Assembly (NCBI GenBank): GCA_003707115.1
Contig: PPNB01000024.1
Location: forward strand, 1-64,000
Direction of reading: 5' to 3'
Length of the DNA: 64,000 nt
Source: Tortispora ganteri
Taxonomy: Eukaryota
Below the pieces are notes generated by a model, which was given only the letters and a program-made list of their open reading frames with translations, was not told the origin of the DNA and did not search any database. Shown piece after piece: positions 1-43,564 of this stretch. The position numbers and the translations under genes were made by a program. Each line of letters opens with the position of its first letter. Position 1 is the first letter of the stretch.

Positions 1-593
1 AAACTCCACTAAATAATCTACTATCCTTCCACTATGTCTAGCACAGTTTTAGGGCATGTTTCTACTGCATTTGGCGCGGCTTGTGGCTTCTAATTAGGAG
101 AATCGCGAAAATCGTGTGCAAATGGTGGAATGGCAAAAAACACCAAGGCTACACCCTTGGTAAATTTTCAGATTTCGCGATAATCTTGATTTTTCTAAAA
201 TGGTCATTATAGCGGCCCAAACGCCACCAAAACACTCAAATATCGTTCCATTATGCATATAATACCTTTAAGAAGTGTTTCTATAGCTGGTGACAGTTTA
301 CTGTGAAAACCGTGAAAATCGTGAAAATCTTGAAAATCGCAAAAAACACTAAGGCTATAGCCTTGGTAAATTTTCAGATTTCACGAAAATCTTGATTTTT
401 TAGAAATTGCTCTTAAAGCCTCTAAAACGTCAATAAATACTCAAATAACCGAACATTATGCTTAGAATACCTTCAGAGCCTCTTCTAGGCCTTTCACGCG
501 GCTCATGATAGTTTGCCAATAAAACTGAGCAAATCGCAATACTCGTAAATGTCACCAAGACCACTACATCGACTTTGAGAAACACGCCATCTA
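1..593. repeat. Long direct repeat copy A (left end cut by the window)
   Basis: Aligns with 2541-3136 at about 96% by manual count (about 24 differences, 13 in the first 110 bp); contains an internal ~70-bp duplication (~133-200 vs ~339-406) and 9-bp GTGAAAATC repeats. Confidence 0.95.
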
Positions 594-914
594 GGGCAAA
601 GAAACTACATTGCTTTTTAGTCTTGAAGATAGGAAGATGCACCTCTCCGTGGGTCTTGCAGCAACTCCTGTACTATTTGATCGTCGATGGTCTTGTCGGT
701 CGACTTCTGATGAATCTCGAAGATTCTGGCTGGTTCCAGGGCGATAGCACTGGCACGCATGTACACGCGTCCGATGGCTGTTGTGTCAAGAGCCCAATGG
801 TTAATCTTATTATTCCTAGACGCTGTTAACCTTCGATTGAGCGCATCCTGTGTAAATTGTTCGCGTGGGTTGCTCAATGTATACGGTCGTCGACCGTAAG
901 TGGAGTAAGCCTAG
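590..914 (+). mobile_element. Possible non-autonomous Helitron-like element
   Basis: A|TC at 589/590; palindrome TACGGTCG-T-CGACCGTA 882-898, a 12-nt spacer, then CTAG (911-914)|T; no Rep/helicase ORF. Confidence 0.35.
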
Positions 915-1125
915 TGAAGGAGAGCGAACAGCGCCCCCTATTGGCTAGAAATATCACGTGCAAACACCTGTACCCTTGAATAAAGTTTTTTTAGGACTGA
1001 AGAAAGATGTCGAGCAATGCATCCTATTGGCTATATATCAGGTGATATACCCTATACCCTGGATTAAAGTTGCAAAAAATCGCTGAAAGGCCAAAATAAC
1101 CCTGAACCCTTCCCGAGAAAACGGG

Positions 1126-1784
1126 AAACCCTAACCTGATTTTCAAGACTTCTGATTGGATATCCGTAAACTTTAACCTTATTTATGCATTAGAGCTTCT
1201 GATTGGTCAATTCCAAACTTTAACCTTATTTTGTACCATAGCTTCTGATTGGTCGATCTAAAAGCTTAACCTTCGATCTAAAACTTTAACCTTCGATCGG
1301 ATCGATACCCTCTGATTGGTCGATCCAAAAGCTTAACCTTCGATCTAAAACTTTAACCTTCGATCGGATCGATTGCCTCTTATTGGTCGATCTAAAAGCT
1401 TAACCTTCGATCTAAAACTTTAACCTTCGATCGGATCGATTGCCTCTTATTGGTCGATCTAAAACTTTAACCTTCGATCGGATCGATCGTCTCTTATTGG
1501 TCGATTTAAAAGCTTAACCTTCGATCGGATCGATCGCTTCTGATTGGTCGATCTAAAAGCTTAACCTTCGATCGGATCGATCGTCTCTTATTGGTCGATT
1601 TAAAAGCTTAACCTTCGATCGGATCGATCGCTTCTGATTGGTCGATCCAAAAGCTTAACCTTCGATCGGATCGATCGTCTCTGATTGGTCAATTTAAACC
1701 AAACCTTAATTGTAAAATAAAGCTTCTTATTGGCTGCTTCATTACCCTAACCTGATTATAAAATTAGGCCTTCTGATTGGTCAA
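1126..1784. repeat. Minisatellite, about 13 units of 47 bp (67 bp where a 20-bp subunit is doubled)
   Basis: Consensus CTTCTGATTGG-TCGATCTA-AAAGCTTAACCTT-CGATCGGATCGATCG; homogeneous central units, diverged outer units. Confidence 0.95.
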
Positions 1785-2540
1785 TATTGTTTCAAACTCT
1801 AATTTTTTGAATAAACTGTGCAGCTAATTGATTGGCTAATATAAGGTTTATATTGCCTAATCGGGATATATTGCCTCGGCTCAAAACCTTAATCGCTAAA
1901 GATCGTCAACCACTATAGCAATATATCTCTGTAATACTGTATGGTTTCACTGCGCACTGAAGATGCAGTAGTTGTAGCATAAAATCACTGTCTTCGGCTA
2001 AAGTATTCGCAACACTCCATTTGGCGTAGCCTGAAGATCTATAATATCTTCTGCTTTGTCTCACTGCATGCTCTCAACGTGAAGTGCTAGGTGCTCAGTA
2101 GGCGAAAAGATGCGCAGCTTTAAAATGCTACAAACCCAAGTAATAATGTGTTTCCAGCAATTTTATTGCCACTAAATAAAACCGATCAGTGGTGCTAGTA
2201 GTTTGAAACTATTTTCACGTTGGTGAATGCCGTTTCGCCGGCATTGGAACCGAATCAATAAAATCGACGATGTATGCCTTCAGGATCGGCAAGCAGTGCA
2301 GAAATTAGAATTGCATCTTCATTGCAGGTTAACATGCAACATCACAAAATAAGCTTCATTCAAATAGTAGGAGCATAAATAATCACAGCTTCGATTGCTT
2401 TTCGACGGTATTCACGACTGTTTTGGACAGCATTACAAGAATATCAAACTTATCCAAAAGTGCCATGGTTGTTGGCAAGGGGAATTATAGGGCAGGCTAT
2501 ATATGTTCCTTCAACCTGCCACAGCAGTATATAACCATTA

Positions 2541-3136
2541 AAACTCCACTAAATAATCGATTATTCTTCGACTATCTTTATCACAGTTTTAGGGCATGTT
2601 TCTACAGCATTTGGCACGGTTTGTGGTTTCTAATTAGCAGAATCGCGAGAATCGTGTGCAAATGGTGGAATGGCAAAAAACACCAAGGCTACACCCTTGG
2701 TAAATTTTCGGATTTCGCGATAATCTTGATTTTTCTAAAAGTGCTCATTATAGCGGCCCAACCGCCACCAAAATACTCAAATATCGTTCCATTATGCATA
2801 CAATACCTTTAAGAAGTGTTTCTATAGCTGGTGACAGTTTACTGTGAAAACCGTGAAAATCGTGAAAATCTCGAAAATCGCAAAAAACACTAAGGCTATA
2901 GCCTTGGTAAATTTTCAGATTTCACGAAAATCTTGATTTTTTAGAAATTGCTCTTAAAGCGTCTAAAACGTCAGTAAATACTCAAATAACCGAACATTAT
3001 GCTTAGAATACCTTCAGAGCCTCTTCTAGGCCTTTCACGCGGCTCATGATAGTTTGCCAATAAAACTGAGCAAATCGCAATACTCGTAAATGTCACCAAG
3101 ACCACACTACATCGACTTTGAGAAACACGCTATCTA
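2541..3136. repeat. Long direct repeat copy B
   Basis: Same sequence as 1-593 at an offset of 2540; homology ends at CACGC(C/T)ATCTA. Confidence 0.95.
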
Positions 3137-3503
3137 TCGATAGGCTAGATCATTATCTGCTATTTTTCTCTGACTTAGTATTGGCTGTCTTGCCTTAACT
3201 CAGATACCTTCACTTCGGCTTCCATACTTTACTTTTGGTAGTCTCAATTTCTCTCTGTGTGGTTTCTGGTCCTTCGCTTGGTACCTAAGCTGCTTGAGTG
3301 CATCTGTGACTTTGTTGGTACGCGTTAAGTTCATTAGACTGTTGCAAACTTATGCTAAACTCGCCGCCCTAATACAGTAACTCCCAAATTTGCAGGGTCC
3401 CGGGTGAAATGAAATCAACATGCCTTAGCATTTGCAGATTCAACCCATCACACAGCCCAATACACTAAAAGGAACCGATCTCGGTGCTCTTAAATGCCTA
3501 TCA

Positions 3504-4613
3504 ATGAAAGAGAGACGTCTTAATGGACCGAAATATGCCCCGATAACTGTACCGGCTTCGCGACGTTTACAAACACTGACTGTATTCTGCCATGTAGCTG
3601 CGTTATGGTTATCAACATCTATCTTCTTCCTGTGCTGCGCTATTCCATTGTTCTGGCCCTTCATTATTGCCTATCTCTTTTATCTGCGGTTTGAGCGATC
3701 GTACTCTGATGGATCTGGCAAGCGCTGTGAATGGATTCGCCATTCCCGCCTCGGGAAATGGTTCTGCGATTTCTTTCCTCTAACTCTCATAAGAACCGCC
3801 CCTTTGACACCCACATATAACTGGTCAAGGGTGCCTCACTCCCGGTTCTGGCCATGGGTCACACTGCCTAAAGCTCCAGAAGATAAGCCAAGATACGTAT
3901 TTGGAATTCACCCGCATGGAATAATTGCTTTGTCGATTTTCGGCGTTCTTTCAAGCGAGGGCCGCGGTTGGTCTAAGCTCTTCCCGGGAATACCTACGTC
4001 ATTACTTACTCTGGACTCCAATTTTAGAGTGCCCTTTTACAGGGACTATCTGCAGGCCTTTGGCCTTTCGTCAGTTTCTAAGCAATCATGTTTGAACTTG
4101 CTCAAACGAGGCTCATCTATCTGTATAGTTGTCGGCGGCGCGCAGGAATCATTGCTTGCCCATCCTGGTCAAATGGAAATCATCCTTAGAAAGAGAAAAG
4201 GATTCGTCAAAATTGCAATGTCGCAACCTAATGTCCATCTAGTGCCTATTCTTGCATTTGGAGAAAATGATCTTTATGACCAAGTAGAAAATGATCCTGA
4301 GTCTAAGCTCTACCGTCTGCAGACTTTCCTCAAGAGCAAGCTCGGTTTTGCCGTGCCCCTGATGTATGGACGAGGAGTCTTCAACTATGACTTTGGCCTT
4401 CTTCCTTACAGACGGCCCGTGAAGGTTGTCGTGGGTAACCCTATCACCGTACCGTATCTTCCCGACCATCCTGTGAGTGAGATAGAACGCATTCATGGTC
4501 TCTACGTCGACGAACTCATGCGCATATGGAACGAACACAAAGATTCTTATATTGAGGAAGCATCTACTTATCTAGGTCCCAAATCCAGCATGAGTTTGGA
4601 AATTATTGAATAA
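3504..4613 (+). CDS. DGA1: Diacylglycerol O-acyltransferase (DGAT2 family)
   Basis: RRLQT, HPHG, VVGGAQESL, RKGFVK, FGENDLY and GRGVFNYDFG motifs; first in-frame ATG at 3504. Confidence 0.95.
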   Translation: MKERRLNGPKYAPITVPASRRLQTLTVFCHVAALWLSTSIFFLCCAIPLFWPFIIAYLFYLRFERSYSDGSGKRCEWIRHSRLGKWFCDFFPLTLIRTAPLTPTYNWSRVPHSRFWPWVTLPKAPEDKPRYVFGIHPHGIIALSIFGVLSSEGRGWSKLFPGIPTSLLTLDSNFRVPFYRDYLQAFGLSSVSKQSCLNLLKRGSSICIVVGGAQESLLAHPGQMEIILRKRKGFVKIAMSQPNVHLVPILAFGENDLYDQVENDPESKLYRLQTFLKSKLGFAVPLMYGRGVFNYDFGLLPYRRPVKVVVGNPITVPYLPDHPVSEIERIHGLYVDELMRIWNEHKDSYIEEASTYLGPKSSMSLEIIE

Positions 4614-4750
4614 ATATTAGTTGCTGGCATTCATTTATATGCCCTGCGCTATGATAAACCATTTCAGTACAAAGTCGCAGGACTTGACCAGTTCGTGGGT
4701 CCTCGTATACCAGGTTGCTCGTAGTTAGTATGTGGCCCACGGCTCTGTAT

Positions 4751-5467
4751 CTAAGCCTTATGTACTTCACGAATCATGGCATATAGCTTGCATATCTCAC
4801 CGTTATCGTCACAGACCATTTCTTTTACTACTTCAAATCCCATCTTCCTGTAGATGGTGACGTTGGGATCCCATTTCGAAGACTCCAAGTAGCATCGAAT
4901 ACCGCTCTTATCAGCAATATCAAGGACATATTTGACAAGCTTCTTACCGATTCCCTTGCCCTGTTCTGCAGGGTCCACTACGACAATATTTAGAAACCAC
5001 ACGCCTTTGTCGTCGTGTGCGAGGACCTCATCGTGTGTCTCCCGCTGAACCTTCTTCCAAATGTTGTATCGACGTACATTTAGCCCTGCGTATCCAAAGC
5101 GCATATTCATCCAGACTTGCTGAAACCAGACTTTCCACGAAGATGAATAGGCCCAGAAGCGATCAGAATAGCTCTGCTTTTTCGGGACAGGAGCCATCCA
5201 CAGAGCTACACCGACCACCTTCCCATCCTCCTCGGCGACGAGGGGACAGCCGTATTCTATTAGCCACCGGAGACGAATAGACAAGGACTCTAGATTTCGT
5301 ACTAAGAGTCCTGGCTGAAAGTCGTAAAGCCAAATAGCATACGGGTCACCCTTAGACTCTGGAGCCTTTGGATCATTGAATACCGCTGAAGGGAAGAAAG
5401 TACGCTGAATAGCGCGTGCAGCATAAGGGATGTCGGCTTCCTCAAGTCTTCTAATGCTTATGGTCAT
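4751..5467 (-). CDS. GNAT-family acetyltransferase
   Basis: VVGVALW; motif A VDPAEQGKGIGKKL; YLESS..NVTIYRKMGF; ATG at 5467. Confidence 0.9.
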   Translation of the reverse strand: MTISIRRLEEADIPYAARAIQRTFFPSAVFNDPKAPESKGDPYAIWLYDFQPGLLVRNLESLSIRLRWLIEYGCPLVAEEDGKVVGVALWMAPVPKKQSYSDRFWAYSSSWKVWFQQVWMNMRFGYAGLNVRRYNIWKKVQRETHDEVLAHDDKGVWFLNIVVVDPAEQGKGIGKKLVKYVLDIADKSGIRCYLESSKWDPNVTIYRKMGFEVVKEMVCDDNGEICKLYAMIREVHKA

Positions 5468-5750
5468 CGGGTTTCTCCCTACTGTAGTGCAAATAATAGA
5501 ATCGCAGCACCCAAAAGCGGGCAACTAGGCTTATAAATTGGTAGAGGATTTAAATTGAGATTTCTCGCTCGATAAGGAGAATCCAGATCTATTTAGTGCC
5601 AATTCGTTTAACTTTAGTTAGCAAACTATATTTTGCATTCTTTCATGATAATTCGCCAATCATAAGGCTAGGAAAAACTTAAATTTCCGATCATCGACAG
5701 TGATCGCTGCTAGTTTATATGAATCTGCAGCCAGTTATTTTCCCAATTCT

Positions 5751-7184
5751 TCATCTTCTTTCCATTTCTGCAATCCGTTCTTCTAGTTCTCGAGTTTTTT
5801 CGATCATTTCATGCCACTGTCTCCGTGGAACGACTATTAGTTCTTCGTAAGGTTCGTATCTGCTATCGCGTAAACTATACGCGCGTGCACTTTCTATTCG
5901 TCGCATATCGCCGCTGATTCTCGCTGAGTGGTTAGAGCGTCGCCTTGTCGTCCCCTGTGCTACGGTGGAGTGATAGTCATTATGGTAGCGTGTTCCGCTG
6001 TCCAGATGTATGCGCTTGCGACGATAGTCATCCGTATTCTTACGCGGGGTAGGCAAGGAGAGTCTGGCCTTTGTGCTTCGTGAGTAATGGTGAGCAGGCG
6101 AGCCGTCATTTAAGCTTCGACTGCTTTCAGGCGATCGTAGGTGTCTCAAGTGCCTTTTTCTTGAACGTTCTTCTTCGTAGTAGGTGCCAATGAAATTCTT
6201 GTCTCTGCCGTTTTTCGCGTAGTATTCCTCATAGTCGTCCTCGTAGTCGTCCTCATCATAGTGGCGATCATTGTAATGACTGTGGTAGTTGCTGGCTGAG
6301 CGGTCAGATGAAGATGCCTCGCAAAAAGCGTCTCTGTCTCCGTATATGTCGTCATCTGGTGTCCTATCTTTATATTGTACATTATCATTGCGCATTTCCG
6401 CATCCTCGTAGTAGTTTCCTGAATCATGATTCCCTGGAGATTGCCTTGTTCCACGTGACCGCTGCGGCGAGCTGATCAACCTATGCATTCTCCTGTCTGC
6501 GTACGACGACAGAACATCCGTAGAGGCTTCACGGCGCAAGATGTTGTGCTCGCTTTGTAGATGAGAATAGGGGCTGTGGTTGAAGCTGTGTGGCCGCGAT
6601 GGAGACAAAGGACCACGACGATCTGCGGGAAAGGAGGTGTAGTCTTGATCCTTCAGGCGCGTCGTGCTGCCTTTGCATCTGCCTTTGCTCGGTTTCGAAA
6701 GAGGTAGGCGGTGTATGTCTGAGTCATCCTGATAAGCAACCTCACTGTGAGTAGATGCGGGTTCGTTGCGTGCAGAGTGGGAGTATTTTCCTAGGGTGTC
6801 GATCATATCTTCTGAATACGCCTGTTCCGATGTGTAGGAGCTGTATGATGAGGCAGATTCCTGCAAGCTATGATGGTTATTTTCAATTAATGCATCTTCG
6901 CCAGATTGGTAGGGCTCATTCGTGGGAGAGTGGTTATTACGGTCTGGAGATTGGTCCGGTTGATCCGCCGTCACGGGTTCTGCGTATGAGTCGTATCCAG
7001 AATGCATAGCACGTATATGTCTATTCATCGAGTCCTTTCTGGCAAATCCGCGCAAACACACGTGACATGTGAACTGCGGCTGATTTGAGTGCGAGGCCAG
7101 ATGACGTTGCAGGTCGTACGGTCTTGTAAACGAGACGTTGCAGACATCACATAAGACATCTTTCGGTTTCGCTGTGTCGGCCAT
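5751..7184 (-). CDS. C2H2 zinc-finger transcription factor (two N-terminal fingers)
   Basis: CDVC..FTRPYDLQRHLASH and CHVC..FARKDSMNRHIRAMH; low-complexity body; C-terminal coiled coil. Confidence 0.9.
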   Translation of the reverse strand: MADTAKPKDVLCDVCNVSFTRPYDLQRHLASHSNQPQFTCHVCLRGFARKDSMNRHIRAMHSGYDSYAEPVTADQPDQSPDRNNHSPTNEPYQSGEDALIENNHHSLQESASSYSSYTSEQAYSEDMIDTLGKYSHSARNEPASTHSEVAYQDDSDIHRLPLSKPSKGRCKGSTTRLKDQDYTSFPADRRGPLSPSRPHSFNHSPYSHLQSEHNILRREASTDVLSSYADRRMHRLISSPQRSRGTRQSPGNHDSGNYYEDAEMRNDNVQYKDRTPDDDIYGDRDAFCEASSSDRSASNYHSHYNDRHYDEDDYEDDYEEYYAKNGRDKNFIGTYYEEERSRKRHLRHLRSPESSRSLNDGSPAHHYSRSTKARLSLPTPRKNTDDYRRKRIHLDSGTRYHNDYHSTVAQGTTRRRSNHSARISGDMRRIESARAYSLRDSRYEPYEELIVVPRRQWHEMIEKTRELEERIAEMERR

Positions 7185-7452
7185 CTCCGTTTATTTTTCA
7201 TGTGCCTGAAAACTAACTGAGGGGTGATTGTGTTAACAACTGATTCGATGTTCCAGTCAAAATGCGCAGAAACCTGTGCCACGGAAAGTGTGTGTCCCAG
7301 GGAAAGCTTGAGATTGGGTACTAGGTGTAGTTTATTGACGCGCTGGCGTATTGACATTTATTGAAGGTTTGCTTAAGGAACAACTAATGCTCTCTTTATT
7401 TATTGCATCCAATAATATTAGTAGCGCTTTTATTCACAGCGGTAGAGACTGT

Positions 7453-8667
7453 CTATCTAAAGTAGTGCGTAGGTACAAAAGGCATCTTCGACACGACGGC
7501 CGGGAACCGTTTCTTTCTGATTTCCAGTTCAACTTCCGTTCCAGAGGTGTGGAAACCCTTCTTAACGTAACCCATAGCAATGTTTTTCTGGAGTGTAGGA
7601 GACGGAAGCCCCGAAGTCACTTCTCCAATAGGTTCGGCGTCAGGACCAGCACCAGCGGTAAAAATCTTAGCGTGTCCGCGTGCAGGTGGTCCACGTCCAA
7701 TGGATACAATTCCAACGCGGCGTTTCGCCGCTGATTTGTCAGCAATCTGCTTCAACACAACTTCAGAACCTCGAAAATCATTTCTCGGCGCAGATCGACG
7801 ACCCTTGGCAACAACCCAGGTCAGACTCGCTTCGATAGGTGTGGTCTCTTCAGAAATGTCAGATCCGTAGAGGCACATACCGGCTTCGAGTCTGAGAGAG
7901 TCACGCGCAGCTAAGCCGGCGGGCTGTACAATTCCTCCACCCTTTGCCGACATTAGCGCGTCTGCCAGCTCTGCGGTGCGTTCCGCCGGGGCCGCAATCT
8001 CAAACCCGTCCTCGCCCGTATACCCTCCCCGACTGGTGCGGCATCCAGGGATTCCAGCAATTGTCAGGAGCTGATTACAACCAAATTTCAATGTGTTAAG
8101 ATCAAATTGCGTAAGAGACTTCAACACCTCAGCCGACTTTGGGCCTTGCAGAGCTACAAGGCCGTCATCCAGGACCTTGTGCTTGACCTGAGAGAATTCA
8201 GTGTCGATAGCTTGCTTGAAGTAGGCTAGATCGCCTTCACGGCATCCAGCATTAGTAACCACGTAGTACTCTGATTCATCTAACTTTGTCACAATCGTGT
8301 CGTCGACAATTCCGCCCTCATTGTTCAGTAGGACCGTCAAGGAGCCTGTGCCAGGAGCCATGGCTGTGAGGTCAATCGGGGTCAGTCGCTCCAGCATGGC
8401 CTTGGCCTCTGACCCAGAGAAAATGTGCTGCACCATGTGGCTAACATCAAAAAGACCAGAACTTGTACGTACCCAATTGTGTGACTCGATATGGCTCTGA
8501 ATCTTAGGATAGACTATAGGCATCGAGAAACCCGCGAATGGCGCCATAGTCGCGCCCTTCTCGATATGCCAATTGTACAGCGGTGTCTTTCCCTCGGCCC
8601 CATTCGCTGAGGCAAACCACCTGACACTTGTAGGTATCTTTGCGTGATTCTTGATAAGTCGACTCAT
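7453..8667 (-). CDS. GCV1: Glycine cleavage T protein (aminomethyltransferase), mitochondrial
   Basis: KTPLY, GLFDVSHM, GYTGEDGFEI, GLAARDSLRLEAGMCLYG, MPFVP. Confidence 0.97.
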   Translation of the reverse strand: MSRLIKNHAKIPTSVRWFASANGAEGKTPLYNWHIEKGATMAPFAGFSMPIVYPKIQSHIESHNWVRTSSGLFDVSHMVQHIFSGSEAKAMLERLTPIDLTAMAPGTGSLTVLLNNEGGIVDDTIVTKLDESEYYVVTNAGCREGDLAYFKQAIDTEFSQVKHKVLDDGLVALQGPKSAEVLKSLTQFDLNTLKFGCNQLLTIAGIPGCRTSRGGYTGEDGFEIAAPAERTAELADALMSAKGGGIVQPAGLAARDSLRLEAGMCLYGSDISEETTPIEASLTWVVAKGRRSAPRNDFRGSEVVLKQIADKSAAKRRVGIVSIGRGPPARGHAKIFTAGAGPDAEPIGEVTSGLPSPTLQKNIAMGYVKKGFHTSGTEVELEIRKKRFPAVVSKMPFVPTHYFR

Positions 8668-15382: not shown

Positions 15383-16003
15383 ATGCCTTTAACATTATCA
15401 TACTTGCATTCCAAAGACATACATGAGAAGACAGCCATGCTTATAGGCACGAATAAAGAGCACCTAGACAAAGCCATTGACTCAGTAGTGGCCGCGAATC
15501 AATTTGTGAGGGTCTACGTTGTAGCACCTGTTGAGCTAACTAACATTTACAAAGATGACAAACGAGTGATTTCACTCGATGTGAACCTGAAGAGCCCGAG
15601 TGCCTGTGCATTGCGTGCAGCCGACGTTGTCCAATATATCCCACGGCTTGACTTAATAGTATGCTGTGTGGAGTCGAGACATTATGCGCCGGGCATCGAA
15701 TACTTGATCACTGACATCCTGCCTTTGGCAGATCAATCTGCAGGCAAGTATGGTTCATGCGAGATCATCATTGACCGTACCGCCACTCCCCTACTCGAAT
15801 CACCGTCTTCGACGTCTATTAGCTCGATTGATAGCTACCAGCCACGACATGAGAACGAGTTTCAGCTTGAGTTCAGGATCCGCGCGGCTATTCATCGTTC
15901 CTGTACCAATCCCGTTTCTTTGATATCCAAGTCGATGGATGCCATGGATCATCCACAAACCACGCATCACAAAATTTCCGAAACTGCCAGTGTTTTGGTT
16001 TGA
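15383..16003 (+). CDS. Hypothetical protein, possibly a degenerate SDR-like Rossmann fold
   Basis: 206-aa ATG ORF, TATAAAA ~85 bp upstream; LDVNLKS and PRLDLIVCC resemble SDR strands, but cofactor and catalytic motifs are absent. Confidence 0.6.
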   Translation: MPLTLSYLHSKDIHEKTAMLIGTNKEHLDKAIDSVVAANQFVRVYVVAPVELTNIYKDDKRVISLDVNLKSPSACALRAADVVQYIPRLDLIVCCVESRHYAPGIEYLITDILPLADQSAGKYGSCEIIIDRTATPLLESPSSTSISSIDSYQPRHENEFQLEFRIRAAIHRSCTNPVSLISKSMDAMDHPQTTHHKISETASVLV

Positions 16004-18578: not shown

Positions 18579-21019
18579 ATGGCAGAGGTACAAATTTACA
18601 AAGCCATCTATTCAGGTGTAAGTATACATACATAAGCGGTGCTTTTCTGGTAGGAATATTTGCCGCCCAGAGCAGGGTTGGCGCTCCAGATATAGGCATC
18701 AGAGTCTTCGGCAGTGAGTAGTGACCTGCTGTATGCGGCAAAATGCCAAATTCACATGTACTAACATGAAATTAGGTGCCTGTGTACGAGATAATGGTGA
18801 ATAATGTAGCCGTCATGCGACGGCGCGCAGATGGCTGGTGTAACGCTACACAGATCTTAAAGATCGCAAATTTTGACAAGCCACAGCGGACGAGAATCTT
18901 GGAACGCGAAGTTCAAATAGGACAGCACGAAAAGGTCCAAGGCGGATACGGCAAGTACCAGGGCACCTGGATACCGATAGACCGGTCAATTGAACTGGCC
19001 ACTAAGTACAAGGTTTTTGATGCTATGAAACCTATACTGGAATACGAGCCCACTGCGGAGTCTCCCCCACTTGCTCCTAAACACGTCTCTGCGGCCAAAC
19101 GGGAAGGATCAACCCGCGGCAGGGGACGTGGACGTGGGCGTGGTGGCTCTACTGGTTCTACGCGCGGCGGCAGGAAGAGCTCGAAATCTACTCCTGCCCC
19201 GGCCTCCTCACATTTTCCGTCATTAGTTGCTGCTGCGTCAATGGCAGATAGCGAAATTGATTCAGCGTCAGTTTCGTCAATATCCTCTATTTCAGAAGGC
19301 GATAACGATCCAACGCGTCCCTTTCACTTCCCTCCTCCAGCTTACGGCCATTCTCCGAGTGGCCCGCTGTCTCCGCGAACCGATTATGCGAACAAATTGC
19401 TTGACTACTTTATGACTGCCGATGACTCGAGCATCCCTGAATTCTTGCTGAACCCTCCAAAAGACTTTAATATCAACCAAGTGATAGACGATGAAGGTCA
19501 TACTGCCTTCCACTGGGCCTGCGCAATGGGTCATGTAAATGTAATGCGAGTGCTAATAAATGCCGGCGCAGATATTAGGGCTACCAACAACTCCGGACAA
19601 ACTCCTTTAGTACGCGCAATCATGTTCACGAATAATTACGATTGGCGCACGTTCCCGCAAGTACTCGATCTCCTAATAGAGACAGTCTTCATGCTTGACA
19701 GGTATAGACAGAACATATTTCATCACATTGCTACGACAACATGCCTTAAGTCCAAATGTGCCGCTGCTCTGTATTACAGCGAGGTAACTCTTACAAAGTT
19801 TGCGTTAATACAGTCTGATCAAATGACTGGCAGCGTTCAAAACATGAGTTCAGACGCTCTCAACTTGTTACAGTCACAGGATCTGGACGGAGACACTCCG
19901 CTGACTATTGCTGCACGCAATGGTGCCAGGCCCTTAGTAAAGTGTTTCCTAGCCTACAATTGTGATCCTACGATTCCTAATACTCAAGGCCACACAGCTC
20001 AAGATTATATCACAGAACACGAGAATAACAGACGATTACTCCATGCAGCGAGAAATAATTACACACGTGCACAACACGGTGCATACCCTGAAGTTGTTTG
20101 GCCCGACATCAGTAAGAGTTCATCATCACCGCCCATGGCGTTGCTGCATAAGCAACACCACCTCGATGAAAACGTGAATGGCTCATATGACCACCAGCTC
20201 GCTGCTACAGTGCCAGTACCTCACCTATCCGAGACTGCTATTCATGCGTCGCAGGAGTTTTTGCCAACGATGGCCGAGCACCTCGAAGCTCTTGCGAAAG
20301 CGTATGACGCAGAATTGGAGGACAAAGAGGCCGACCACTCGCAAGCGCAACTGCTGGTTGAGTCTATGAGAGAAGAGATGGCTGCCTGCGAGGCTTCAAT
20401 AAAAGATGTGCTGAATTGGGAAAAAGACAGCGACGAACCTAAAGCCAGAAACAACAGTCTAGAGACGATTAAAGAACAGGCCGAGATTCCAGATGGCGAT
20501 ACGAGCGGTGCAAACGACAGCGATAGGCAGAATGATAAAAGTAACCAAAGTGACTCTTTGAATTCTCAGAGCACAGAACGGATTAATATTCTGGTAGCGA
20601 ATGCATCCCAGGTGCTGGAATCGAAGTCGCGAGCTGTGGAAGAGCTGATGAAGACGAGAAGCAAGCAGCTGCGCAAGCTACTCGAACGGACACAAGCCCG
20701 CGACCTTGCGGAGATTGTTCAAAACGAAGAAATGAAAATGCACGATGAGATTGAGTGCGCTATGACCAATGGCGACAAAGAGACTCAGCAAGGAGAACGC
20801 GAAGCGCTAATTTCGGAGCTATACGCGCTGCAGGAGGAGCGTCAGCAGTCTCTTGGAGACATTGTTGAGTTGTGGTCGAATGCCGGTGTTGGTGAGAAGA
20901 TGACAGACTATAGACGTCTTATTTCACTGTCCTGTGGGGTCAAGCCTGACGATATCGATTGGCTGCTGGACGGGATAATGCAAGCGCTGTCCGGAGAAAC
21001 TGAAGAGCTGCGGTTCTAA
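18579..21019 (+). CDS. MBP1: APSES/ankyrin G1/S transcription factor (MBF/SBF DNA-binding subunit); exons 18579-18617 and 18776-21019
   Basis: Intron 18618-18775 GTAAGT..TACTAAC..TAG restores MAEVQIYKAIYSGVPVYE; NATQILK, HEKVQGGYGKYQGTW, ankyrin repeats. Mbp1 versus Swi4 assignment is by resemblance only. Confidence 0.88.
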
Positions 21020-29580: not shown

Positions 29581-30432
29581 TCATCGGAAAGGACGCCCAT
29601 CGTAGACCTCAGCGTCGACGGACGTGCCCTGGTAGACCTCAGAGTCCCGCAGCCCTTCAGACAGAAACCGCACTAGATGGTTCGGTAGGGCGCCGTTCCG
29701 CCGTTGTCTCCGTCTGAGGTTCGATAGCACCAATCGTGGAGACTCGGCGCCAGAGTTTCCCAACAGAATAGAGTGTAGACTGACAGGAATGTCTGCGAGA
29801 TCTGCCCGCGTGAGGGGCAGCAACGGCGACCAGGTCGAGGTCCTAGTGAGCATGTTGTCGTCCATAAGGTTGTCGGCATCTTCGTCGTCAATGTCGATGT
29901 CAGCATGATCTTCGTCATCTTCATCATCTTCGTCAATCTCGTCCTCGTTTTCAATATTGGATCCAGAGTCGATGCCGTTGTCTGAGGGCACGCGGTGTTC
30001 CGGCTCCATATACCGTCCGTGGCGTTTTGACATGTCGAGCAGGCTCGCCGCTTTCTTTTCCGAATGCAATACCGACTGCGTAAGCCCTTCCAGCCACTCG
30101 CTCTCTCTTATCTCTGTGGAGTCGACAAGCCGCGCACACTCGGCGCCTGAGGCATCAAAGTCCAGCACGTACAGCGCAGGCGCAGGTCTTCGCTTCAGTG
30201 TCTTGAATCTTGAAGTGGTAGATGTCGATGTAAGCACAGTAGAGTTTGCCGCAGTAATTGAAGCGACAATTGTTGAATTAGTCGCAGGCTTGTGATCAGA
30301 CGAGTGCCGGCCGCGCCGACCGCTAGCGCCGATGTTCGCAGACGATCGTGGTGCAGTTCGTTTCATTATAGACCACTCTTTGAGCAAATTCGTAGACGTC
30401 CTAGTTTTGTATTCTGTTATAGGAAGCCCCAT
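29581..30432 (-). CDS. Hypothetical protein with acidic tract and basic NLS-like patches
   Basis: 283-aa ATG ORF; D/E run; RRRQRR; family not recognised; start may be 30366. Confidence 0.7.
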   Translation of the reverse strand: MGLPITEYKTRTSTNLLKEWSIMKRTAPRSSANIGASGRRGRHSSDHKPATNSTIVASITAANSTVLTSTSTTSRFKTLKRRPAPALYVLDFDASGAECARLVDSTEIRESEWLEGLTQSVLHSEKKAASLLDMSKRHGRYMEPEHRVPSDNGIDSGSNIENEDEIDEDDEDDEDHADIDIDDEDADNLMDDNMLTRTSTWSPLLPLTRADLADIPVSLHSILLGNSGAESPRLVLSNLRRRQRRNGALPNHLVRFLSEGLRDSEVYQGTSVDAEVYDGRPFR

Positions 30433-30754: not shown

Positions 30755-31684
30755 ATGTTGCAGCTGCATAATAATTCAGTTGGTGTGATCATTGCTTTCG
30801 CGCTCTTCCTGCTACCACTCCTCAAACCTGCAACAGTCTTCTGCTATCGCCTACTCTTCCTATACAAGAAATGCAGCTTGAAGCGACGCAAGCCACTAGG
30901 ATTCTCTCTGAAAATATGCCTTATAAACACCATAGGATTTATCGTAATAATGTTTATGCCCCCTAAGCACACAAAATTTGACAAATCACTCTATCCGGCC
31001 GTGGAATCAGCATATGCATACACCATATTAGGCCCTGACGCGCTGACCTGCGACTGGTGCAACCCTGAGTCGCCACGGTTCATAGGCGTCTCCTTCGCTT
31101 ATTTCCTGTATATGATTCCCTATATCGTTATGCCCCATATTGTCTTGACGTTCCTGGTCATGTTACTGACCTCCAAAACCTTCGCAAGCCGCGCTGCTTA
31201 CCTGTTCCGGCTCAATTGCGTCTACGTGACTTTCGGAGCAGGGCTCGTCGACTTGTTTGTAACCTACTACATTTGGTCATCTAGCGATATCGTTCCAGAG
31301 CAGTTAAAATACCCGACACTGCAGATCCCATTCTCTATGAACATCGCACGAACAGCTTACTTCGTTGTCACCGGTGGCTTCATAGTGGGCCTAGTATACC
31401 TCCTCGAGTCAATGATCCTCAGTCCAGTCTCACTGGCACCAGGCAATTCTCGCGTCATAAACTCCAGAGCACAGGCCTTACACAAGGCTCTGGAGGACAT
31501 TGTATCAAATTCAAGATCCACAGGAATAATACACGAGGCTATCCGATCGGACAGAGTTCTTTACAATCATTTCACCAAGTATTATTTGTCTCACATTAAT
31601 CCATTACCTGAAACGTTATGCGATCCACAAGACCCAATAGCACTCGAAGCTGAACGAATAGCTAAAACGGTGACTGAACTGTGA
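30755..31684 (+). CDS. Hypothetical multi-pass membrane protein with a CxxC motif
   Basis: Several hydrophobic helices; GPDALTCDWC; first ATG at 30755. Confidence 0.75.
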   Translation: MLQLHNNSVGVIIAFALFLLPLLKPATVFCYRLLFLYKKCSLKRRKPLGFSLKICLINTIGFIVIMFMPPKHTKFDKSLYPAVESAYAYTILGPDALTCDWCNPESPRFIGVSFAYFLYMIPYIVMPHIVLTFLVMLLTSKTFASRAAYLFRLNCVYVTFGAGLVDLFVTYYIWSSSDIVPEQLKYPTLQIPFSMNIARTAYFVVTGGFIVGLVYLLESMILSPVSLAPGNSRVINSRAQALHKALEDIVSNSRSTGIIHEAIRSDRVLYNHFTKYYLSHINPLPETLCDPQDPIALEAERIAKTVTEL

Positions 31685-39017: not shown

Positions 39018-42000
39018 GATGGGAAAATAACTGAAATCAGAAAGTAAAGCAGATATATATATGGAAATCCAAGAATAGTCACAAATTGACTGAAAGATAA
39101 AAGAAGACTCAATAAGCAAAGAAAGCGGGTTTGAACTTATGCGGTCAAGTCAGATCCTAAATTCTCACAGATACAAAGTTCAAAGAGAATAAAGTTTGAA
39201 AGGAATATAATAAAGTCAACCCGCAATATGTCCGTTTAATAAAAGGGCTGTATTGATAAAATTGATTTGCACAGAGTAGAGGCAAACTAAGTCGAAATAA
39301 AGCAGGGGTTGAGTATTTATGTGGTAGTTAAAGTAGTATAAGTGTCCTAAATCCGTTTAGAGAAAAATAGAGGGGAAAACGCAGACTAGTTAAGGACGGG
39401 GAAAAAAAATCGATCTAATGAAGCACCAATATGCTAAAATGGGAGCGATTCTCTTTTTTGACTATTTGACTAGCTAACAAGTCACTATGATACTATTTTC
39501 CGAACTTGGGTCTATTATTGACTTCTAGCGTACGTAGTCAAGCCGCTAAAATGAGGAATTATTAAGGCGGCCTAGAGAAAAGAGAGGTAAGTGAACCCTT
39601 GAGCGGCAGCGATCAGATCCAACAATCAACAACTGTGATATACTTCTAGTAAAATGGAATAAGGAATGTGCTCAAAGAAAACTCCTTGGTATTTAAATTA
39701 ATTATATATGATCTTCGAGCCCGCAAATAGAGGTGCAAGTATATATAGTCTATTTATATATATGACTAAATTAATCACATGAATTTTTTTCCTTTGACTA
39801 ATTTCCTCTGTCCCCCCTTTTAATGGTGGGTAAGGTGGGGGTTAAAAGAGGGAAATCCCGGCACAGAAACAGCTCCGGCGCTCATTGTCTAAGCCTAAAT
39901 GCGGAAAACGTCAGAAGTTTGCCCTTTCCGTCGAAAAACTAAATTTACTGTCAGCCAAACTTAAATTATAAAAACTATTTTTCGGTAATTTCCTATTCCT
40001 TCAAATACCCTAAACTTCCTTACCGTTTCGCGCTATTACAACACACCTAATACGCCAAATGATATCGTAATTAAGACGCCTGCAACTACGCTTTAGGGTG
40101 AATCGGGCGGGTACTCCGATAAATCGATTAACGAGATTACCGCCTATCGCTCATCTATCGCTTGATGCCAAAAAACCATTTTCGCTGGACCGGAAAATTA
40201 CATCATCCGTCGATTTCGAACTCAGTCCTGGAAGGTGGCTCGAAGATCCTTTACCCACTTTGATAGATCTTTATGGCATATTAGTAAAAGCCGTTTTTCA
40301 CATTTTAATCACACTCGTTCCGGCTAGTATATCATGTGATCGGAATACTGTCCCGTGTCACAGTCTCTCTTCTCGGCATCCAATCTCTTATCCCGTTCCG
40401 CTCTTTCTTCTTTCATGTCACAAAAACCCGTTTGATCGGTTCTTCATTGACCCGTATTATTCTTTTGAACAACACATTTATCTATCATCGGAGTTCATAC
40501 ATCCTGGATTTTACATTACTTCTTTCGATCTAAGTTTCTTCTTGTTTAACGCACGGACTTCTCTCTTCCACTTGATGGGACTAAAAACTTTATTCCGAAT
40601 TCGGCTTAAAACTATATTCTAGATTTCATTGTATTAACCTTATTAGGCATATAGTGCCGCCCCATGCCTACCCCGGTTTTTAGTGCTGACACTTGGACGT
40701 AGCCTCCACTACCCATTTTCGGCGATAGCTATGCTTACTATCATGTGTGATAGCGCATATGTTTCCCGCTATCCGTGTACCTTACAAGTGCTCTCCGCAT
40801 ACCCTGCTACACGCATCACTATTCCTGCTTATCATTGCCCGCTCTCGGCCTGGTTCTTACATCACTCTCCCCGCTGATACCCGACACGAATACCAAAGCC
40901 TTTTATTGCTACAGGTTCTCATTGAGTACGTCTTAGGTGGACTTTGTTCCTCATTACGATCCGCCGGTTTTTAATCTTCGGCTAAGGCTTTGGCCTGTTT
41001 CATTTCCGCCTCACTTTAAACCCGCCTCGGCCGGCTTCACCGCCCACAGACATTGCGGGACACTCCATTACCGGGCTAATGAATCCAGGATCTAATTCAT
41101 CACATATCTAGTATTTAGTGCTTCAATTTGCCTCTTTTAGGGCGATATCTTAATGTACTTTCCTGCGCACGGAGTATCCGCAACGTTGTAGTGCGCGCGA
41201 TCCATGGAAAGTAATATGCTTCGTCTAGAAAACCTAATCTTAAATAAGCGTTTATGACAGTTAGATATTTACTGGCTACGAAGCCGGGGCCAACAACACA
41301 TATCCCCTGTAAAGTCTCGACTAAGCATGCGTATTGAGCTTGAATACTGTTCTGTTTACATGCAGTCTGTTGTTGAAAAAGAGTAGTATTTTCGCACTAA
41401 ACCCTCCGATGACAGATAGTATTGCTAGCCTTTAGGTCAATATAGCTATTTCCTTATTCAAGGTATTTAACTTTTAAACTTACCCGCGATTATCCGATTA
41501 GGTAAGTGGTCTTCGCAGGAGAAGTTTATTGTTCTCTATAGAATAACGCTAAATTAACTATATTTGCCTTCTAGAATTCTGGTTTAAGCACTAGAACTCG
41601 TATAATCGTTCTTCGCGAACTGATCATACATGCCATTTTTTCTGCTTTTGTGCTATTAGCTCAAATTTGTGCACCGCATTCCTTGAGAAAAAACCTTTCA
41701 TTAGCGACACAATACCGTGATCAATTCCTGTATATGTGTGTTCCTTTAAGGCCCACAAAGGTTGGATGTCGGATTTATCCGGGCGCAACGGTAAACTTTA
41801 AATTAATTCGGCGTTTGCAACTGCCGCACGCTGACAAATTTTGGTGCTAATCTACAGATAGATATGATACAAAGGTTATTATTACACACAATTTTGCCAC
41901 ATTATCGCTTGAAATACCACAATATAAACAAGATCGCATAAAGCTGCAGGGTACAAAGTGTGGCGTTGTTCGTAAGCCTGTTGTAGCAGGACTATAGACA

Positions 42001-43564
42001 CCCGGCCTAAAAGCTGTTCGTACGGCCCTGTCTATTGTTTTTCCGGGTGTTCCAGACAAAATAGTTATTCTAAAACCAGCATGTAGCTATACTGCTAAAC
42101 TGCGCCTGAATATTTCTGATCGGCATCCGGCATCGAACACAAGAAAAAAAAAACTCTCTTTTCTCCCTTATCTTCCGCTATTATCGATATTCTGGTGCCG
42201 TTCGCCCACTACATTGCGTGGAACTTTGATCGCGATGGTTTCGGCATGATTAAACCTTAATAGGCCTTGACCAACCTCTTGGATCCGGTTGCGTTCCTTA
42301 CGCATGTGCATCACTCACTTACTGGTGTACCAATATCCAATATTACTATAACGTGGTCTTTGTGTGTTTTTGGGGTATCTCATTCAATGCTATCCTGTCT
42401 ACGCTGTACCAGTTAAGCCAAATGTAAAACCTGATCACGTTCGGTCATTATTCATCCTACCAACATTATTCCGCGATCACACTAAAATATCATAAATAGA
42501 GTTCCTAGTGTAGTTTACACATGCGCCAAAAAAAAGGCCATCTACTGGATCTTTGGCGCCGATCGATCGACATGCCATGATCGCAACGCCCGTCGTGGCG
42601 ATAGCGAACGGTCGAACGGAAAATCTTCGGCGCTGGATCATGTATATACTGATGAATCTCTGTGACTTTTAAGGCTGCCTTAAACGTTACTGTTAAACAA
42701 CTTAACTGTTATATCTGATGCCATACTATCTAAATCGTCATCTCTTGTCGGCACATTTCAGCACTATTTTGTTGTCTAAATTCTACATTCTCTAACATTG
42801 CAACTTTTAATAATCTCACTTTCTGCGATCCAGGCCTCTCCAACTGCCATTACATCATCTCCATCCTATTCCTTAGGCCTCGCAAGATTCTTGACTCTTT
42901 CACGCCCACATTTTTGCTACTCAACCCGTAGAGAACTTGAATCATTAATCGCACAATTGATCCAGCCCGCAGAACCCTAAAAATAAATATTCTCCATTTG
43001 CACACAGCTCTGCAATTCCAGTGCTTATACTACACACAGACCCTACTTGCCCTATATTGCCATATAGCAACCATACACACTCTAATGGTACTATCGGCGT
43101 TTGCATATGGACCCACCTTCCCCGGCCCCAATTCTACGCGACTACCCGGCAGTTCCTGTCACCGCTGTTCCAGCTCCCTGTCACCATCATTTTGAAAGTC
43201 ATACAGACCGGAAACTTTTGCGATTATTGAGGATCACACATCAGATCGCCGCATTCGCCCTTGATTTCCTTGCACACGGCCTGTTACCGCGCCGCCTTAC
43301 ACGTGAACCCGCTGCTCCGAACAAAGATCTCTTTCCAAGCCTTTGTAGAAAAGCTTTCTCTTACAGAGTGCCCACAACAACTCTGCTATTCTCACTGATC
43401 CAACTGCATTTACTGTAGTATCTGCCTTACAGACTCATCTGACCCAGTCACTTTGGTCCAATTAAAGTCAACCGGATTCTACCTTTAATTGCTCAATCCC
43501 GTTCCCTTGTACCTTCTATTCGCTAGACCTCTTATCATACATCGTCACATACATAACACTGAAT

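Follow-up and report, generated by a model that had tools for sequence, protein, structure and literature searches.

The stretch of DNA analyzed here, hereafter the window, comprises 64,000 nucleotides of the yeast Tortispora ganteri (positions 1 to 64,000 of contig PPNB01000024.1, assembly GCA_003707115.1, forward strand). Ordinary genes lie close together from 3.5 kb on, and the first 3136 bp of the window are occupied by a composite repeat. An earlier reading of the same letters (the original prediction) had described at least 593 bp recurring 2540 bp downstream, and this holds: 2541–3136 is a second copy of bases 1–593, with 95.8% identity over 596 columns of a BLAST alignment and a repeat period of 2540–2543 bp. 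As the window starts inside the repeat, the left end of copy 1 (1–593) is cut off and 593 bp is a lower bound for the recurring module, while copy 2 (2541–3136) is the innermost, edge copy, with homology stopping at 3136. No sequence resembling bases 1–3400 was found by similarity search in the rest of the window, and a scan of the Tandem Repeats Finder (TRF) type detected no tandem repeat scoring 80 or higher in the remaining 60.9 kb. We interpret bases 1–3136 as the partly decayed inner border of a satellite, a non-coding, multi-copy family of nested tandem repeats with a 2.54-kb higher-order unit, most likely telomere-associated, a reading to which we assign a probability of about 50%. As a separate observation, the homology between the two copies ends within a perfect 10-bp palindrome, CTATCGATAG (3134–3143), at the junction between the array and its flank.

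Copy number was assessed by aligning the contigs (~9.5 Mb in all) of two public runs to bases 1–8000 of the window. The runs contain 53% of the sampled words of 1–3200, and 322 and 305 contigs, respectively, were placed on the 8 kb, 134 and 128 of which fit two places. A long unique contig beginning at 3290–3308, with a word depth of 84.4, served as the reference. Over window positions 3308–8000 it differs at 4 of 4693 bases (5066, 5354, 5508 and 6659), and therefore the runs derive from a near-identical genome and not from the same one; the two runs may also be one data set filed twice. Summed depths amount to 12–60 times the unique value per bin, but such sums are not copy numbers, and the minisatellite of the unit inflates its own bins; the depths of single contigs were used instead. 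These reach 2062 over 1–109 and 2049 over 251–506 (1947 in the second run, X2), both about 24 times the unique depth, and are lower across the remainder of the unit, namely 452 over 819–1046 (5.4 times), 342 over 1115–1270 (4 times), 612 over 1920–2080 (7 times) and 299 over 2493–2654 (3.5 times). Single-contig depths of 3.5–24 times the unique flank indicate a real multi-locus family rather than an assembly duplication artefact, the outcome that the original prediction had named as its own refutation, and we regard it as very likely that a genuine multi-copy, non-coding repeat family is present. The ~170-bp array flank (3137–3307) has a word depth of 180–390 as against 84.4, that is 2–4.6 times and mostly 3–4 times the unique value, so that the flank is present at about 3–4 loci and the edge copy with its flank at a few.

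The family is heterogeneous, and not merely multi-copy. Module 1–506 has roughly double the depth found elsewhere in the unit, and two contigs leave the unit after base 506 for a different sequence, which places this module in another context as well. Moreover, the contig of depth 2062 ends at about window base 1, marking a branch point in the read graph, and the contig of the assembly most likely ends within the repeat family. An origin of the repeat in a plasmid or in foreign DNA found no support: blastn of 1–3136 matched none of 72,556 plasmid records, and two exact-pattern scans of metagenome contigs returned 0 loci each.

The two copies within the window differ in an uneven manner. A base-by-base alignment gave 25 differing positions (22 substitutions and 3 indel positions), 13 of them in bases 1–110 (11.8% divergence) and the other 12 in 111–593 (2.5%), which bears out the original prediction that differences are concentrated in the first 110 bp and fits the partial homogenization that it had suggested. 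Over 1–109, the majority variant (the contig of depth 2062) has 3 listed differences from copy 1, against 13 between copy 2 and copy 1; over 251–506, each of the window copies shows approximately 6–7 differences from the majority variant and they show 4 from each other. From these comparisons, the visible copies appear to be minor variants related to each other, with the innermost one the more diverged in its first part. Unequal exchange and gene conversion would maintain the uniformity of the array but be inefficient at its edges, from which visible copies of this kind, with the innermost more diverged over the first 110 bp, are expected. The array itself would extend to the left of the window, and a tandem array continuing leftwards is, in our judgment, probable.

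The same data may be read in another way, in which the family is real and the tandem path of 1.2 units is the assembler's mosaic of variants from different loci. Variant contigs over the unit number at least a dozen, many of the placed contigs fit two places, the step in divergence from 11.8% in 1–110 to 2.5% in 111–593 is what a switch of variant would give, and at 3166 the sole aligned contig disagrees with the window. Against this, a 162-nt contig covering 2493–2654 with 1 mismatch bridges the tail-to-head joint at 2540/2541, and over 251–506 the two copies have 4 differences between them as against 6 from the majority variant, as fits neighboring copies. We consider a mosaic path improbable, and return to the edge of a genuine tandem array as the preferred reading.

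The internal anatomy of the unit is that of repeats within repeats. Each module contains two subrepeats of ~207 bp (a, 96–304, and b, 305–512, in copy 1; the equivalent pair lies at 2636–3053 in copy 2), which are 77% identical between types (98–268 versus 305–473, BLAST) and reach a mean column identity of 83% in a four-way alignment. Each subrepeat holds an imperfect palindrome of ~76 bp (104–179 in subrepeat a, with equivalents at approximately 311–385, 2644–2719 and 2852–2926), with fold z-scores of −2.8 and −3.2 for DNA. None of its 22 predicted pairs is broken in any of the four copies, and one pair has changed on both sides, from CG to TA, between the two subrepeat types; this retention is weak evidence of constraint, the independent subrepeat types being only two. 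Subrepeat b starts with 4.1 iterations of the 9-bp GTGAAAATC (303–339, plus strand, found by TRF and again at 2844–2880), and 9 of the window's 18 plus-strand occurrences of GAAAATC fall within 1–3136. A hairpin followed by a T-run is present in each subrepeat, in line with the hairpin-terminated segment described in the original prediction. A bacterial-style scan for terminator-like sites counted 12, as against 3.2 ± 1.6 in shuffled sequences, but three repeated sequences account for 10 of the 12, and with just 5 distinct sites the excess vanishes.

To the right of the module lies a segment of ~350 bp (594–939) that is single-copy within the unit, has no internal repeats and is slightly higher in G+C. 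It is followed by an array of 16 same-strand units of ~47 bp (940–1835, plus strand, defined by TRF and by box positions), spaced by 45–47 bp, or by 67 bp where a 20-bp piece has been inserted or duplicated. Every unit carries two conserved boxes, TTAACCT and (C)TGATTGG(TC). All 8 occurrences of CTGATTGG in the window are on the plus strand at 1152–1773, and 16 of the 17 plus-strand ATTGG motifs of 1–3136 fall at 940–1831; we take CTGATTGG to be a reversed CCAAT box, known as the 'Y box', to which NF-Y/Hap2-3-5 binds. The minisatellite that had been predicted corresponds to the homogeneous core of this array (1149–1698; periods 47, 67 and 94; TRF scores up to 507), its outer units being the most diverged, and the hairpins of the minisatellite are not unusual (DNA fold z −1.2). 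The unit closes with a tail of ~700 bp without internal repeats (1836–2540), which includes the two short palindromes singled out earlier, at 2226–2245 and ~2322. Both exist, but the claimed richness in palindromes did not exceed chance, as their fold z-scores are −1.0 and −0.3, and 30 and 69 of 200 shuffles, respectively, equal them. If active at all, the oriented CCAAT/TTAACCT box arrays and the palindromic subrepeats would act as protein-binding platforms, in a boundary or chromatin role, and not as genes.

Boxes of the CRCGAAA type, bound by Swi4/Mbp1-like factors, were also considered as a feature of the subrepeats and set aside, as 5 lie in 1–3136 against 22 window-wide, and these are mostly copies of one another. 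A KilA-N/APSES protein with ankyrin repeats (Swi4/Mbp1-like) is encoded at 18794–21016 on the plus strand, and the box counts lend no support to a link between it and the satellite.

The repeat unit is non-coding. None of the 24 stop-to-stop open reading frames (ORFs) of at least 45 amino acids in 1–3400 has a Pfam match with an E-value below 0.2. The most gene-like of them, a 97-amino-acid ORF on the minus strand at 620–910, within the single-copy segment, has a codon score of 0.07, as against 0.13 ± 0.06 for the real genes of the window, and found no match at E ≤ 0.001 among 1,835,955,588 representative proteins. Rfam gave no match at gathering score in the 64 kb and none at E ≤ 1 in 1–3500. 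A single B-box match, with 1 mismatch, lies in 1–3136, inside the minisatellite, and the 13 matches window-wide are not above chance (10.0 ± 3.1 expected); in view of the missing B-box excess and of the lack of an Rfam family, an array of RNA polymerase III small-RNA genes or of short interspersed nuclear elements (SINEs) was rejected. Inspection of the repeat ends, together with Pfam and Rfam, likewise upheld the original prediction in finding a non-coding unit with no signature of a long terminal repeat (LTR) retrotransposon, a transposase or ribosomal RNA (rRNA). As a side observation, no tRNA gene was found in the window either, which leaves 64 kb of gene-dense yeast DNA without a tRNA gene or a match that reaches the Rfam gathering score.

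Direct repeats of at least 593 bp around 1.9 kb of non-coding DNA could also be the LTRs of a non-autonomous element (LARD/TRIM-like), or the remains of another decayed mobile element, 1–593 and 2541–3136 then being the LTRs of one insertion among many solo copies. The terminal module at about twice the depth of the interior, and its other context after base 506, would suit such an element. The visible ends do not: they lack TG and CA, with copy 2 starting AAACTCC and both copies ending ATCTA, although the true left end may precede the window. Nor was a TGG-type primer binding site seen after 593, where the sequence reads GGGCAAAGAAAC, or a purine tract before 2541, where it reads ...TATATAACCATTA, both with respect to an uncertain left boundary. 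In addition, no remnant of gag, pol, transposase or helicase was recognized by Pfam in any of the 24 ORFs, the 'LTR' is itself made of two tandem 207-bp subrepeats, and the alternative junction, at 506, falls within the module and not at its end. An LTR-type origin is accordingly very doubtful. The original prediction had further offered a rolling-circle-amplified element as the alternative to the edge of a tandem macrosatellite. The multi-copy composite repeat has stood, while nothing points to the rolling-circle part of that proposal: Helitrons and other rolling-circle elements were rejected on the lack of any Rep or helicase match in Pfam and of a hairpin within ~40 bp before 593 or 3136, where a Helitron would have a G+C-rich hairpin ahead of a 3' CTRR end; the repeat ends read CTAG in copy 1 and CTAT in copy 2.

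A piece or derivative of the intergenic spacer of ribosomal DNA (rDNA), located at the border of an rDNA array, was also weighed. Nested subrepeats and motifs with a hairpin and a T-run are of the spacer type, the depth of ~24 times the unique value over 1–506 is within the range expected for a small yeast rDNA array, and rDNA arrays often break assemblies. Contrary to this explanation, the 64 kb contain no match to 5S, 5.8S, small-subunit or large-subunit rRNA, the 2.54-kb period is too short for an rDNA unit, and the interior of the unit has a lower and uneven depth of 5–7 times the unique value per variant. A spacer origin is therefore highly unlikely.

On the right side, the repeat ends 368 bp before the first gene, which encodes a diacylglycerol acyltransferase of the DGAT2 type (3504–4613, plus strand; PF03982, E 2.5e-79). 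This is followed by genes for a GNAT acetyltransferase, a C2H2 zinc-finger protein, GCV1, a HAD hydrolase and a VTC-domain protein, and further on by Mpp10 at 13.2 kb, Alg14, tRNase Z, Gtr1, a kinesin and others. GCV1 (aminomethyltransferase, 7453–8667) shares 91% identity, without gaps, with its counterpart in Tortispora caseinolytica NRRL Y-17796, and the second-best match reaches 54%, which places the window in a Tortispora species (family Trigonopsidaceae) distinct from that strain. The statement in the original prediction that the repeat directly abuts essential-type genes was too loose, since the first gene is of the DGAT2 type and clearly core genes begin at 7.5 kb (GCV1) and 13 kb (Mpp10); judging from essentiality in S. 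cerevisiae, we assume that the first gene is not obviously essential. Elsewhere in the window, 4.4 kb at 39100–43500 hold no ORF of at least 150 amino acids among the listed ORFs, with a G+C content of 36–43% and a strongly negative GC skew (−0.21 to −0.31). Pfam gave no match for its eight stop-to-stop ORFs (81–183 amino acids), and this stretch may be a long intergenic region, the remains of a gene or a gene with many introns. Three ORFs of 206–309 amino acids at 15383–16000 (plus strand), 29584–30432 (minus strand) and 30755–31681 (plus strand) match no Pfam family at E ≤ 0.01.

As for the chromosomal position of the array, a telomere-associated one is what we tentatively favor, at slightly less than even odds. 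AACCCT occurs three times within 40 bp at 1098–1134, forming a degenerate TTAGGG-type C-strand tract directly left of the homogeneous core of the minisatellite; such a triple cluster is found once in the window and was matched in 1 of 300 block shuffles. Its position on the plus strand is the orientation expected for a TTAGGG-type telomere to the left, and the telomeric position is further supported by the flank common to about 3–4 loci and by a window start that probably coincides with the contig end. In S. cerevisiae, the Y' arrays and the STR repeats of X elements, the latter with TTAGGG (Tbf1) sites, are telomere-associated sequences. The Tortispora repeat is similar to these in being present at several loci, in its kb-scale tandem units, in its TTAGGG-like sites and in its homogenized copies with decayed proximal edges; it differs from Y' in lacking a helicase ORF, as judged by Pfam, and in carrying the telomere-like tract inside the unit and not at the end of the array. 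The arrays would adjoin telomeres and be common to several chromosome ends, like the telomere-associated sequences of other eukaryotes. TTAGGG-like telomere repeats have been proposed as ancestral in early-branching budding yeasts (PMC7857110); in the portion of that paper available to us, the sole entry for Trigonopsidaceae is a putative 11-mer of Trigonopsis vinaria, and Tortispora is not listed.

Several points weigh against a decayed, telomere-associated array edge. The putative telomere motif of Trigonopsis vinaria has no match in the window, even with 1 mismatch allowed, and no array of telomere repeats is visible in it. The array stops at unit position 593 and not at the telomere-like tract, so that, unlike in Y' arrays, this tract does not mark the joint between units. 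Core housekeeping genes start within 0.4–13 kb of the repeat, a proximity no less compatible with an array at an interstitial or centromeric site, and the well-known subtelomeres of Saccharomyces have their core genes farther away. Moreover, the double depth of 1–506 and the alternative sequence after 506 indicate that the family is a mosaic and not a simple array. The tandem order rests on the assembly and on the one contig of 162 nt that bridges a joint, with no long read spanning two units. Finally, the depths are near-equal in both runs, which are probably one data set and were counted as one source, and even the single-contig depths are rough.

The same kind of array could lie inside chromosomes, as an interstitial repeat like the major repeat sequence (MRS) of Candida albicans or as a centromere-associated satellite, an explanation that is the main alternative but that we find rather unlikely. 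In PMC6896093, MRS is described at nine loci in C. albicans, and its RPS component as non-coding tandem units of ~2 kb made of 80–170-bp subrepeats, each with an A-run and a short inverted repeat, and present at several loci. The Tortispora unit follows this RPS-like design, being a tandem, nested unit of 2.54 kb with subrepeats of 207 bp and of 47, 67 and 94 bp. Also in favor of a chromosome-internal position, genes begin at a distance of just 0.4 kb, the window shows no telomere array, and a junction flank at about 3–4 loci could mean one array per chromosome. On the other hand, there is no sequence relation to RPS: COM29 (with its SfiI site) has no match here even with up to 3 mismatches, and flanks of the RB2/HOK type were not seen. 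The likeness of the Tortispora unit to MRS, which is chromosome-internal, is therefore one of design, and not of descent. The G+C content of the unit (38–42%) is only slightly below that of its surroundings, and the TTAGGG-type tract is present and oriented as for a left chromosome end, neither of which favors an interstitial or centromeric array.

The dg/dh outer repeats of Schizosaccharomyces pombe centromeres, which occur once per chromosome region, resemble the Tortispora array in that both consist of non-coding tandem repeats on the kb scale and belong to small fungal genomes. The Tortispora units are shorter, and the array shows no sign of a centromeric position, of a link to RNAi or of inverted symmetry in its flanks. 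A bolder proposal in this direction would have the 2.54-kb unit as a centromere-associated or karyotype-shaping satellite of Tortispora, placed once per chromosome (~3–4 loci), with the 16 CCAAT/Y-box units and the palindromic 207-bp subrepeats as protein-loading platforms. The chances of this are, in our estimate, slim. If it were true, it would represent a satellite-type regional centromere or an MRS-like element, neither of which is known from this early-branching lineage of budding yeasts.

Regarding earlier work, a search outside subscription journals found no account of the repeats, chromosome ends or centromeres of Tortispora or Trigonopsidaceae beyond passing mentions; in the accessible parts of PMC6692504 and PMC10833146, Tortispora is mentioned just for its mating type and spore shape. 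Overall, the sequence family is new and represents a known kind of chromosome filler. The 2.54-kb unit is a concrete probe for mapping the points at which assemblies of these compact genomes are interrupted. If the arrays are subtelomeric, as we consider most likely, they would be routine filler of chromosome ends, of use mainly in completing assemblies and in tracking down the telomere repeat of Tortispora; a centromeric or interstitial location would extend the range of chromosome architectures known in budding yeasts.

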